Assembly: GCA_964016885.1 (NCBI GenBank)
Contig: OZ024745.1
Span: forward strand, 37,324,001-37,388,000
DNA: 64,000 nucleotides
Origin: Eledone cirrhosa
Lineage: Eukaryota
Direction of reading: 5' to 3'
Both the position numbers and the translations under genes were made by a program. Positions 3,511 to 56,642 of this stretch are shown here, one piece after another. The stretch's first letter is position 1; every line of letters starts with the position of its first letter. The notes below the pieces were generated by a model that was given only the letters and a program-made list of their open reading frames with translations, was not told the origin of the DNA and searched no databases.

Positions 3511-3720
3511 AACGAAGGAGGTGGGGTAAGGAACCAGATGGACCATAACACACCAGAGTACTCAATACTTAGGGTAGTAGAGTGGGTAATAGGAAAATGT
3601 TCAAGACCCCGACGGCAGAGCTCAAGCCGTTTCGACGGCTATTTCTGGGTTAAAATAGAGTCCAGAAATACACGTTGAAACGGCTTGAGCTCTGCCGTCG
3701 GGGTCTTGAACATTTTCCTA
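3511..3720 (-). mobile_element. Fold-back PLE-derived mini-element (3' half of HHR, inverted at stem II, plus tail)
   Basis: Inverted arms about 3589-3648 / 3662-3720 carrying GAAACGGCTTGAGCTCTGCCGTCGGGGTC; unpaired tail 3511-3588; (TA)n on both sides; relatives at 13727, 24272, 26309, 32691, 52661, 56461. Confidence 0.7.
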
Positions 3721-5117
3721 TATATATACATGTGTGTGTGTGTGTGTGTATGTATATATATATATATATATATATACACACATATTCGTTTATTTAGGAA
3801 ACAGCTTTTCCTTTGGACATGTACATACATACACACACGCGCGTACAGACACACACACACACACACACAGACACATATATATATATACCTGTGTCACTGA
3901 CTCAGGTATATATAAATGGGTAGGTAGGTAGATATAAAAGTATGTAAGTTTTTATGTATTATTATAGGTGCATTTGTATGTACGTTTGTGTTTGTGTTTG
4001 CGTCTGTCTCAGTTTGGGTTTGTATGTGAGGGAGAAGGGGCGAAATGGGGAGAAAATAGGAGAGAAAGGTGTGGAGAGATATTGAGCGGGGGGTGAGAGC
4101 GAGTGGAGGCTGAGAGAGCAGGGTGCCGGGTGGTGAATACACTTTCATTGTTTCAAAGGTATGAAGTGAGATTAAGTCAAATGATTAAAACCGTTAGCAA
4201 GCTGACACGTGGCCAATTATTAGAAGATAAAAGCTAGAGTCAAAGTACACATCAACAACAACAACAACAACAACACCAACAATAATATAATGATAATAAC
4301 ATTAATAATAATAATAATAATAATAATAATAATAATAATAATAATAATAATAATAATAATAGTAAGGGGATAAAACAATCTCACAAAAGGAGAAAATATA
4401 TATCCTAATCAATTAATGTGCACCGCAACAACCACAAAAGAAACAACTATTGTTAATTAAATAAATATATATAAAAAGGGAGATATGTATTTACTTATTT
4501 TTTTATTTTCGGGTGGGAGGCTTTTGTTAAGTCCTTATTGTATTTGTGTAAACTTTTAAGTGGTCAAATTAAACCATTTAAAGTTACCTTCAATATGAAT
4601 GCGAGATTTCGATTTCTTGCGTTAATCTCGTCAGCTAAGTGCCTGGCTTGGGGCATTTGTTTTTAGTTTTATCTTTTCTTCTAAAATCATCGTGGGAACG
4701 AAATGTAACTTTTTGATAAACCTGCTAAAACAAAAACACCTATTCAGTACACAAAACAGAAGAATTAAACACACACACACACACACATACATAAATGTAT
4801 ATATATATATATATATATATACATCGCCTCACACAAGATATGTATATATGAATGCATATATATAGACGCATATACACACTTATAAATATACATAAGTCGA
4901 ATCATATACACAAACATACAAGCACACATATATGCATAGACGTATTCACATAAACACATGTTCAAAATGACTACTTACATACATACATACATACATACAT
5001 ACATACATACATACATACATACATATGTGTGTGCGTGCGCGCATAGGTCAAATTATTGATTCCACGCATGACCAGGCAATTATAAGAGATCGATTAATGT
5101 AACATGGAACAACACGG

Positions 5118-5720
5118 CTAAGAAGCGAATTTCTCAATATGACCACCCCTATATATGCTGACTGTTACTTCTAGTCTGAAGAGGGCAATCCCTTCATTAA
5201 ATATTGCACGATCAAGTGCACGCATGTGACTTTTCAAACCCGCTTTTGTCTTGCCGGTCCGTTCACAAATGTAGCACCTGAACTGTCTGTCTCCTGGCAA
5301 TACCAGCTGGGGTGCGTCTCCATGTATTCTATCATGTCTGGTCAGTCCACCACCTGACTTGAAAAACAAGCCACACTCACTGGAAATGTACCGTAGAGTG
5401 TGTGGTGGTAGAACCATCTCACAGTTTAAGGATATCATAAAAGAATAAAAGACAATCTTAAAGCTCTGAAGATTGATATGGAGAACTGGTAGAGACTGGC
5501 TGAAGGCCTTCCATCATGGAGAAAGATCATCAAGTATGGAAGTGATGTCTTTGAAAACAACCGAGTGGAGCATGCTGTTTTGAACCGTCCATTTCTTAAG
5601 CGTAAGTGAGTGCAATGCCTTCAAAGATTCAGCAGGAATTGAGATGCAATGTAGGTGGCCGGTTTCTTCTAACGAGAGCTGGATTTGTCGATCATCTGAA
5701 ATCACACGAGCCAGGGAGAA
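5118..5720. pseudogene. Rearranged 3' fragment of an RTE-clade LINE with C-terminal C2H2 zinc fingers
   Basis: Plus strand 5446-5710 reads IKDNLKALKIDMENW*RLAEGLPSWRKIIKYG.. and CNVGGRFLLTRAGFVDHLKSH; minus strand 5118-5438 reads ECGLFFKSGGGLTRHDRIH and CYICERTGKTKAGLKSHMR; resembles RTE ORF C-termini, with the two parts in opposite orientation. Confidence 0.6.
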
Positions 5721-5879
5721 ATCGAGTCACCTGTGAGATGGTTTATATATATATATATATATATATATATATATATATATATATATATATATATATATAT
5801 ATATATATATATATATATATATATGTATATATATATCAATGATATTAATAAATGGGAGTTATCTTTATAAAACCATATT

Positions 5880-5940
5880 TATTTTATTATATATATTTCA
5901 AGGGTGCCAAAATGTTGGTACGCTCTCATCAGATAAAATA
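5880..5940 (-). ncRNA. Hammerhead ribozyme motif (inverted arm copy)
   Basis: TTTC at 5896, TCATCAG at 5926; mirror of 6064-6124. Confidence 0.7.
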
Positions 5941-6063
5941 CAAAAGTTGTTTTATAAATAGTGACATATCCAAAAACAAGAACTTATCGTTTTAACTTCA
6001 GTTTGGATATCCAAATAAGTTCTTGTCTTTTTGAATATGTCACTATTTGTAAAACAACTTTTG

Positions 6064-6124
6064 TATTTTATCTGATGAGGGCATACCAATATTTTGGTAC
6101 CCTTGAAATATATATAATAAAATA
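6064..6124 (+). ncRNA. Minimal type I hammerhead ribozyme motif
   Basis: TATTTTAT-CTGATGA-GGGCATACCAA-TATT-TTGGTACCCTT-GAAA-TATATA-TA-ATAAAATA. Confidence 0.8.
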
Positions 6125-53930: not shown

Positions 53931-55764
53931 GTGAAAGAACCAAAGCATAAAATAATAAAATAGTGTGCATGAATTATTAAAATTTCAATGAATTGAAACA
54001 AAAATGTATCCTGTAAGGTATTTCCTACCAACCGATCTGATCTAACTATTATTGACGCAATATTCAGACAAATAGATTGTCTAGAGCTGTGGGGATTTAA
54101 GGACGAATAATTTTTATAATTAATTTTACCAAATTAATAAAACACATTTTATTAATAAAACTACATTATTTCCCATAATGTTTTATAATTACAATATATA
54201 AGTATATTCGTATGCCCATATATATATATATATATATATATATATATATATATATACACGCATACACACATGTGTGTGTTTGTGTGTATATTCATATATG
54301 TACGCATGTATGTGTGAGTATCTTATCGTTTCTTAATCAGAAGGAGGAGTGGTGTGCGCGCGCGTGCAAACTCCATAACTTCCTTTAATTAATATATTAA
54401 TTCTATAAAAACAAATTTATCATGTGTAAAATGTTATATGAATGTTGGGAATCTCCAGCAATCGTCTCTTTAATTCACTAGAGGTCAACAAGACCAAATA
54501 ATTATATACATATATATACTTTTAGTTTTAAGCTAAAAAACAGAAGGTTATAACAGCGCAAAGTTGAAATCTGATAAATTCTAAAGCATTTTCTCTAACT
54601 TATTCATGGTTCAGATAACACGCTATGATAATGTGAATGGATTACTGTAAAAGATAAAATAAGACGATGTAATTGATATAATTAAATTTTTTAAGATACA
54701 ATTTTTGGAAATGACTTCGCTCTCAATATGGTGTAATTTAAAACGTTGATTTTGATTTTTGTATGTGTGTAAAATTCTTCTGAAAAATACTAAAGTAAAA
54801 ACAAATAATAATAAAAGTTTTAAAAATATCTTTTGAAAATGATGTTCTAAAAATATATGCCACAATGCACATTAAAAATATGACTCTAGAAGTATATTCT
54901 TTAAAGATCATGATCGGTTCGATTTATAACGCTCATTAGAAGGCTATGATAAAAATCTAACAACTATAAAATTTGTTGTAAATGCAAAATCTATACGTAG
55001 TACTTTAGGAATAGGTTTTCTTTTCAAAGTTTTTGATTCTCCGAAAGACATATGGAAAATAAGTGAAATATAATATAGTAATCACAAAGCAATTCGAAAC
55101 CGTTTCGTTGATTTAAACTTACTTCATGGTACTTTACAGCAATATTATTTCAATTTGTTTTATTTATTTTACGAAGAAAGAATGCGCTAGGTTCATAAGG
55201 GGTGTGGTAAAATTGGGTGGCATTCATACTTTAAAGTGGCATAAATGAAAGGGAATATATAAAACCGGAAATGGTAATTGTTATGAATACACAACTGCTC
55301 CGGAATTTATTTCGAAGGAAAGCAACAATTCTTTAAAAATTAACGGCAATAATGAAGTAGAAACGCCATACAGCATAATCTTCCGACCACTTCTTTCTCC
55401 GAACTTTACGCTTTTCCTGATGAAGGTGATGGAGGACTAACGCCCGATACTTTAAAACAAGCATATTCCTTTTCGGACAAGCGTGAAACTAATAAGATTT
55501 TGTCTTATTTTATCCCCGCGTTTGTCTTGCTTAACTTGAATTGTATATATATATATATATATATATATATATATATATATATATATATAAGTATATATAT
55601 ATATGTGTATATATATATATATATATATATATATACAATTCAAGTTATGCAAGACAAACGCGGGGATAAAATAAGACAAAATCTTATTAGTTTCACGCAA
55701 AAACAAGATGGCGTAGGACAGAACAAAGGAGAGGCACAAAAACAACAAAAAATAAGAATCCCCA

Positions 55765-55807
55765 GTCACTGAAGAGGTCACAGAATGTGTGACGAAAGAA
55801 CTTTGAC
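55765..55807 (+). ncRNA. Minimal type I hammerhead motif in a PLE 3'-UTR fragment (about 55698-55965)
   Basis: GTCA-CTGAAGA-G-GTCACA-GAATG-TGTGAC-GAAA-GAAC-TT-TGAC; flanks resemble the 3' UTR of the large PLE (ATGGCGTAG upstream, ACCCTCCC..ATAACAATAT terminus). Confidence 0.75.
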
Positions 55808-56101
55808 AATATATGAACAACCGTCCGGTTGTGGAGCCAACCAATCAACCAACCGGAAATTGATAAATTCTTAAATTTATAAATTTAATTTATAATAAAT
55901 TGGAGTGAAAGCAACTGGTGCGTGTGTTTCTTATTGGCAACATAACCCTCCCAAAGCATAACAATATATATATATATATATATATATATATATATATATA
56001 TAGAGAGAGAGAGAGAGAGAGAGAGAGAGAGACAGAGAGAGAGAGAGAGAGAGAGAGAAAATTAAAATACTAGAGTGTGTTGGAGTTAAACACCCTCTTC
56101 G

Positions 56102-56358
56102 TATTATGAAAATAAACCAAAGAACCCTTCAATACATCAAAAGTCTTTATTAGCCAACAATGTTTCGTCCTATTAAGGACTCATCAGGGCAATTAAAGCT
56201 ATAAGAAGCACTATCGGTCAATAGTTTTTGGCTTGTATTGACCGATAGTGCTTCTTATAGCTTTAATTGCCCTGATGAGTCCTTAATAGGACGAAACATT
56301 GTTGGCTAATAAAGACTTTTGATGTATTGAAGGCTTCTTTGGTTTATTTTCATAATAT
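56102..56358. mobile_element. Fold-back mini-element with two inverted canonical hammerheads
   Basis: Arms about 56102-56223 / 56236-56358; minus-strand HHR at 56152-56192; right end abuts (TA)n. Confidence 0.82.
56269..56306 (+). ncRNA. Minimal type I hammerhead ribozyme motif
   Basis: GCC-CTGATGA-GTCC-TTAATA-GGAC-GAAA-CATTG-TT-GGC. Confidence 0.85.
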
Positions 56359-56460
56359 ATATATATATATATATATATATATATATATATATATATATAT
56401 ATATATATATATATATATATATATATATATATATATATATATATATAGGTATATATATAT

Positions 56461-56642
56461 AACAAACAAAGAGGGTGTGATAAGATATTAGGTGGACCAT
56501 TACACTCCAGAGTACTCGATACTTGGGGTAGTAGAGTGGGTAATATGAAAAGATTCAGGACCCTGGTGGCTGAGCTCGAGCCGTTTCGACGGCTAGATCC
56601 GAACGGAAAGAGCTCAGCCGTCGGTGTCCTGAATCTTTTCAT
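56461..56642 (-). mobile_element. Fold-back mini-element (half-HHR family, diverged subfamily)
   Basis: Family tail followed by arms ATGAAAAGATTCAGGAC..GTCCTGAATCTTTTCAT; (TA)n flanks. Confidence 0.7.

Follow-up and report, generated by a model that had tools for sequence, protein, structure and literature searches.

A 64,000-nt stretch of the genome of Eledone cirrhosa (contig OZ024745.1, positions 37,324,001 to 37,388,000, called the window here and numbered from its first letter) contains five short repeats that are built as hairpins. They lie at 3511-3720, 26309-26494, 32691-32883, 52661-52786 and 56461-56643, and each consists of a tail and two inverted arms between (TA)n runs. These loci had been pointed out in an earlier inspection of the letters of this DNA (the original prediction), and all five proved to be real. 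On sequence grounds, each of them derives from a Penelope-like element (PLE) of the Hydra clade and represents a short part of it. Positions within the element are counted from the base at which the arms stop (+1); +60 is the inner boundary of the tail, +61 to +139 form the tail, and +139 is its outer end.

In the first hairpin, the tail (+61 to +139 of the element RNA) is joined to (TA)n and occupies 3511-3589 on the minus strand; the same sequence precedes the open reading frame (ORF) and closes the 3' pseudo-long terminal repeat (pLTR) in the long copies L189 and L190. The tail-bearing arm follows at 3590-3651 (minus strand, +60 to +1), with the 3' strand of ribozyme stem II, the GAAA box, stem III, GUC and the 3' strand of stem I. 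The three bases beyond it (3652-3654) may be native -1 to -3. A non-native G at 3658 stands just before the tail-less arm (3659-3720, plus strand, +1 to +60), which again ends on (TA)n. The hairpin at 26309-26494 has its tail at 26309-26378, a tail arm reaching +1 (26438) and a tail-less arm starting from +5 (26439). At 32691-32883 the tail-less arm extends to +2 (32749) and is longer than the tail-bearing arm, which runs from +5 or +6 to 32804 and is followed by the tail at 32805-32883. The copy at 52661-52786 has a small deletion in its tail arm and was said to turn further 3'; we place its early turn in stem III, at about +33. The last copy, at 56461-56643, belongs to the subfamily of the repeat at 24271 described below. 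Its tail arm reaches +2 (56604, read by hand against L118), and its second arm starts from about +29 (56610). None of these hairpins contains the 5' strand of stem II or its apical loop. The turn strings quoted in the original prediction were recovered in all five. Its statement that they keep the 3' half of the ribozyme (GAAA, stem III, GUC, 3' strand of stem I) holds overall, except that the second arm of the 56461 copy is without the GAAA box; the 5' half of the core is indeed missing, but its sequence in this family is YUGANAA and not the CUGAUGA that had been named. A solo fragment of a tail-less arm (about +7 to +60, then (TA)n) is found at 13717-13770 on the plus strand.

A tail-less, non-inverted copy at 24271-24420 (minus strand) passes through +1 (24332) into upstream pLTR sequence. 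As had been anticipated for this relative, it holds a complete hammerhead: a type I layout at 24288-24381 (minus strand) with a U3-A8 core, a long two-tier stem II and a predicted cut after 24292, which scores below the Rfam threshold. The Rfam hammerhead models gave no match at the gathering score, the best hit being misaligned with an E-value of 2.1, and the identification rests on motifs and pairing. In 21 full copies the structure is paired in 92.6% of cells, against 29-49% when it is slid along the alignment. All 21 have G10.1-C11.1 and A15.1-U16.1, the three helices are present, and covariation is weak (4 pairs). Stem II measures about 58 nt and has two tiers, a lower helix of +8 to +16 with about -30 to -38 and an upper helix of -3 to +4 with -12 to -18, with its apex at about -8. 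Core position 3-8 is U3-A8 in 22 of 28 distinct full copies, a variant also reported in PLEs of S. mansoni (PMC4209133). The other six have C3 opposite A8, seen in the L189, L034, L056 and L098 subfamilies and including one copy with a long open frame; this exchange should impair cleavage.

Long copies extend upstream from the ribozyme through a 3' untranslated region into a GIY-YIG domain, and searching the genome with this domain yielded the full-length copies (20 regions were fetched). The open frames of L190 (789 amino acids) and L189 (794 amino acids) both contain YRDD and a C-terminal VIY..YIG. DKT is present in both proteins, with RWR where the definition of the Hydra clade has RWK. The CxCx5C linker is intact in L190, which has no CCHH between GIY and YIG and has CxxC and CxH near the C-terminus; in L189 one linker cysteine is changed. 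No direct match of the ORF was obtained in Pfam, NCBIfam or the PDB. Its homologs number 279, of which the best 120 are 36-54% identical. The parent unit is about 3.5 kb long with a tail of 79 nt. It contains the +1 to +139 segment twice: one copy lies about 90 nt before the ATG, and the other closes the 3' end and makes the hammerhead complete there. Published Hydra-clade traits are a reverse transcriptase (RT) with C-terminal GIY-YIG, DKT, RWK, the CxCx5C linker, no CCHH, CxxC and CxH, and a (TA)n target (PMC8557442). By its motif features and (TA)n target the parent is assigned to this clade, and we regard it as a new member of a known clade. An RT piece in L025/L151 was rejected as the partner; it belongs to another PLE family and matches neither tail nor arm.

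A 37-nt pattern from the tail occurs 5,723 times without mismatch in the 3.0-Gb genome, whereas the reversed control does not occur. Since only one of the five window tails matches this pattern exactly, the family likely comprises tens of thousands of copies. To map the ends of the arms, we went through the exact tail matches in genome order and used 90 of the first 100 listed, all on contig 1; two neighbours and the last eight listed were left out, and L118 and L119 appear to be duplicates of each other. Both arms were aligned to natural long copies, and 12 of the 90 positions were corrected by hand before counting. Similarity-ranked sets (L001-L060) were kept out of the distribution because their query ran through stem II. 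Under a strict pattern, 66 of the 90 tails directly adjoin (TA)n, and with a loose pattern (TA)n ends are found at both tail boundaries in the contigs examined.

The sample consists of 65 inverted and 25 solo copies. The inverted ones are built like the inverted pLTRs with tail known from PLEs, 5'-truncated, head to head and usually with the tail on one arm; a few copies (L071, L105) carry tail sequence on both. Their 5'-most reach falls at -9 to +10 in 52 of the 65 and at -2 to +3 in 36. The original prediction had set a uniform spread of breakpoints against itself; they are non-uniform and sharply clustered inside stem II. Tail arms stop at a rate of 0.004-0.006 per nt over +60 to +11 and of 0.144 per nt at +3 to -2, where 41 of the 57 arms still extending come to an end. 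Among the solo copies, 14 of 25 end at -9 to +10. Because they end at the same site, the site marks the end of a cDNA and not a signal for inversion. Genome-wide, 10,331 arms are exact through +1; an A comes next in 5,847 of them, a C in 2,443, and in the remaining 2,041 the base is G or T. When the first 100 rows with A were inspected by hand, 52 proved to read through, as did 5 of the first 100 with G or T, which leaves about 70% of the 10,331 arms stopping near +1. On L189, the summed depth of two runs (one sample, possibly the source of the assembly; the kind of run is unrecorded) is reduced about 13-fold immediately before +1 (4918) and by a factor of hundreds in the ORF, and 4905-4918 holds several joints between opposite strands. 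We did not count this as independent support, since depth here does not measure copy number and is lowered upstream by subfamily divergence. A second, weaker boundary may lie at the base of the 5' strand of stem II, where two ORF-linked copies begin (L192:3305 at -40 and L202:3163 at -38, positions approximate) and a deletion in L194 ends (approximate).

Either arm of a hairpin can be the longer one. In the sample this is the tail arm in 36 copies and the tail-less arm in 19, with 10 equal. For one common junction type, +1/+7, there are 365 matches in which the tail arm ends at +7 and its partner at +1, and 351 with the arms reversed. In L152 and L153 the tail-less arms are about 400-500 nt longer than the tail arms and reach coding sequence that is missing from the tail arm. 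The tail-less arm must therefore have been copied from RNA and not from the tail-bearing strand: it is first-strand cDNA as well. Each arm adjoins (TA)n at one of the two tail boundaries, and arms and solo copies alike stop sharply at +1. From these observations we conclude that the hairpins are probably two separate first-strand cDNAs that ran off the likely 5' end of the element RNA and were joined head to head.

Such a product could arise as follows. The PLE protein would nick both strands of its (TA)n target, and priming would occur on opposite strands at the outer (+139) and inner (+60) ends of the tail, as suggested by the anole PLE in vitro. On AT-rich DNA, the protein of that element (PAc) cuts both strands and extends them; reverse transcription begins at two RNA sites, one at either boundary of the tail, and ribozyme cleavage is dispensable (PMC11167929). 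If the template were the tail copy nearer the 5' end, or a short transcript from a solo pLTR, cDNAs of 60 and 140 nt resembling retroviral strong-stop DNA would form. Both, whether made on one RNA molecule or on two, would run off the 5' end of the RNA at +1. Their 3' ends would be joined by a template jump or by end joining, and the junction would show an overlap of 0-2 nt or carry a few extra bases. The long palindromes and the seamless tandems could come from multimeric RNA or from priming at the 3' tail. The start site would happen to fall inside stem II.

The nature of +1 bears directly on this proposal. In the 21 aligned full copies, A at +1 and G at +2 are invariant, in the context TTAGTC or TCAGTC, and the main subfamilies have a TATTTA-like box at about -29 to -34. 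Set against the initiator consensus YYA+1NWYY and the TATA consensus, +1 is the A of an initiator-like sequence, and the TATA-like box lies some 31 nt ahead of it. Among 120 distinct arms, the unexplained base beyond +1 is C in 19, G in 5, T in 5 and A in 29, A being confounded by native sequence and the TA flank; added bases were counted at +1 only. Hand counts of the first 100 rows listed per class gave 29 unexplained C, 11 G and about 9 T, or about 710, 225 and 185 when scaled to the totals of 2,443 and 2,041. A predominance of C is what copying of a cap would be expected to leave. An extra G in the sense strand marks cap copying in full-length L1 insertions (PMC11702581), and PLE start sites lie in the pLTR (PMC2377424, PMC8557442). 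This makes +1 a candidate for the capped start site of an RNA polymerase II transcript, and the candidate core promoter, being part of stem II, would account for the position of the turn. Several observations weigh against a capped start. None of the seven ORF-linked 5' ends stops at +1 (two lie at -38/-40, three further upstream, and two are cut at about +14 and +65), so that multimeric templates or strand transfer have to be invoked. The 24271-type subfamily is without the TATA-like box. Base +1 lies 3 nt into the upper tier of stem II, and an RT might also pause at such a place. In half of the 100 rows with C after +1, this base may instead belong to a second arm that starts from +4 or +5; the excess of C could also come from an addition preference of the RT itself. 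Two other origins of the stop were discarded. Ribozyme cleavage does not account for the 5' end, since only 1 of 155 arm ends lies at the predicted cut site (+42); a 3' splice site at +1/+2 does not fit because the arms retain AG and no constant upstream exon follows.

The original prediction had explained the hairpins by snap-back, in which the nascent tail-bearing cDNA folds on stem II and primes its own second strand. The turns do fall within stem II, and self-priming has been proposed for PLE palindromes (PMC3846280). For snap-back the cDNA would have to proceed past the apex into the 5' strand and the loop would be kept; this is seen in one of the 65 inverted copies, L064, whose turn falls on a paired base of the upper helix. 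There are 1,938 copies with both strands of lower stem II, and of the first 100 listed none continues as a fold-back; all run on toward the core. The solo copies share the stop site, the polarity of the junctions is symmetric, and the long palindromes turn far from the ribozyme. These results contradict snap-back, which we now hold to be very improbable. Marginally less credible still is the amplification of whole hairpins from a single ancestor or a few, either as a DNA element akin to a miniature inverted-repeat transposable element (MITE) or as a retroposed palindrome. Some junctions do recur hundreds of times, and conversion between arms could homogenise them. However, one and the same junction is found on many subfamily backgrounds and in both polarities, and the subfamily blocks are also present in long ORF-linked copies. 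The two arms of a copy differ by 3.4 changes on average, compared with 6.0 between left arms and 5.8 between right arms of different copies (43 copies), and a subfamily block is identical between own arms in 17 of 36 copies against a mean of 2.6 and a maximum of 8 in 2,000 shuffles. The turns vary as well, with 31 distinct strings among 33 junctions caught by a regular expression, a few of which are not true turns. The claims that each copy's arms match each other best, that the turn differs among copies and that every hairpin is a separate event are thereby borne out. A MITE in particular was rejected, because the ends are asymmetric, the centres vary and the partner is an RT rather than a DNA transposase. 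Arms are not always identical beside the turn: at L001, L005, L011, L018, L022 and L023 the tail arm has G at +3 and its partner A, probably through selection by the query sequence.

The competitor with the most in its favour, though we judge it unlikely, retains two primary cDNAs and dispenses with the run-off. The RNA would extend upstream of +1, and the RT would stop there at a pause, or the RNA would be cut, owing to the upper tier of stem II or a bound protein; the ribozyme fold would then set the stop site without snap-back. In its favour, +1 and U-15 form a pair in all 21 copies, pairing in the upper helix amounts to 90%, and five of the seven ORF-linked copies pass +1 seamlessly. Yet lower stem II and stem III, although stronger and GC-rich, do not make arms stop (0.005 per nt at +20 to +11), and subfamilies of the L189/L190 type with a mismatch in the upper helix still stop at or near +1 (L134, L151, L110 and others, in small numbers). 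Nor does a pause predict the initiator-like context or the excess of C. A variant of the run-off, in which the cDNA folds back through a tiny loop at its run-off end and then anneals to a second cDNA, would give the same product as the joining of two run-off cDNAs.

Retroviral minus-strand strong-stop DNA is primed near the 5' end of the RNA, runs off at +1 and copies a segment that is repeated at both RNA ends. On the reading with two run-off cDNAs, the Eledone family shares these features. It differs in that priming would be on chromosomal targets at two sites, with no tRNA primer, integrase or long terminal repeat (LTR), and the run-off product itself would be inserted. In L1 twin priming, two cDNAs copy adjacent, non-overlapping segments of the RNA, whereas both arms of the Eledone hairpins copy the same 60 nt and thus form a palindrome. 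L1 insertions are similar in using two primers from one target break, in junctions with short overlaps or added bases, and in the extra base at full-length 5' ends (PMC11702581). PLEs of the Hydra clade resemble the parent in their RT with C-terminal GIY-YIG, DKT, CxCx5C linker, lack of CCHH, CxxC/CxH, (TA)n target and pLTR hammerhead, and in an inverted 5'-truncated copy (PMC8557442). The Hydra hammerheads listed in the supplement of that paper have CUGANGA cores and a short stem II, unlike the U3-A8 core and two-tier stem II found here. Further differences are the length of the tail, typically 30-40 bp, the unit of about 3.5 kb, and the thousands of short hairpins with a fixed turn. The inverted pLTRs of Penelope and Poseidon (PMC3846280, PMC8557442), taken together with the two RT start sites of PAc (PMC11167929), are likewise comparable in their head-to-head arms and in a one-sided tail that lies a short way within the 5' part of the element, either before the ORF or inside it. 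In their available parts, these accounts describe variable truncation and a junction made by antisense self-priming or endonuclease resolution, and give neither a fixed turn at a start site nor a count showing that either arm can be the longer. Animal non-LTR retrozymes are also non-coding, PLE-derived, hammerhead-related repeats (10.64898/2026.07.22.740005), but their tandem units each contain a whole ribozyme. Identity with them was rejected, as the short Eledone copies are inverted or solo and have the 3' half of the ribozyme without the 5' core.

Inverted pLTRs with a one-sided tail are already known (PMC3846280, PMC8557442); what is new is the mass of short hairpins with a fixed turn. Our search of the openly available literature found no account of this family, of a fixed turn at a PLE start site or at a candidate start site inside the ribozyme, or of symmetric-polarity counts, and the available part of PMC13282606 makes no mention of such hairpins. 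The inverted repeats of PLEs and their one-sided tail have been ascribed to antisense self-priming, to endonuclease resolution or to two RT start sites. Here, thousands of short insertions permit counting, and the equal polarity favours two primary cDNAs. The fixed stop offers a single base at which a capped start can be tested, and the promoter candidate and a ribozyme helix occupy the same bases. Annotators may mistake such hairpins for MITEs or microRNA precursors. It is also conceivable, at a little under even chances in our estimation, that PLEs in general insert by twin priming at the tail boundaries with strong-stop-like cDNAs. In the present family, run-off would take place at a capped start inside stem II; the transcript would begin with half a ribozyme, and only read-through copies would carry a whole one. 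The hairpins would then be a fossil record of an integration intermediate, and the rule that the turn of short copies marks the start site, with either arm the longer, should hold in other PLE families.

Several hammerhead-bearing repeat families coexist in the window. A palindrome of another family at 56102-56357 has an intact CUGAUGA minimal hammerhead in both arms and turns upstream of it; its longer arm starts at AGT in a native TGAGTTT context. This family was tried as a control, but a 17-nt pattern found only 9 exact matches elsewhere, all reading through. At 48764-52470, a perfect inverted repeat of 1,413 nt surrounds 881 nt and has, close to either outer end (at 48912 and 52295), a core that resembles a hammerhead; it is probably a young PLE-type insertion. 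The inverted arms at 23027-23598 are 188 nt long, each with a CUGAUGA...GAAA motif and a long stem II. More short palindromes or single copies with such motifs lie at 5896-6108, 48252-48478 and 661-701. At 55480-55699, inverted arms of about 65 nt surround a (TA)n run and are unrelated to the hairpin family. Elsewhere in the genome, L161-L181 (e.g. G000:C4:322579500-322599499) represent a separate, very young PLE family in which many copies have an open frame of 775 amino acids. Its tandem units of about 4.2 kb are more than 99% identical, the arrays invert at variable points, and an older, broken copy is nested in L151.

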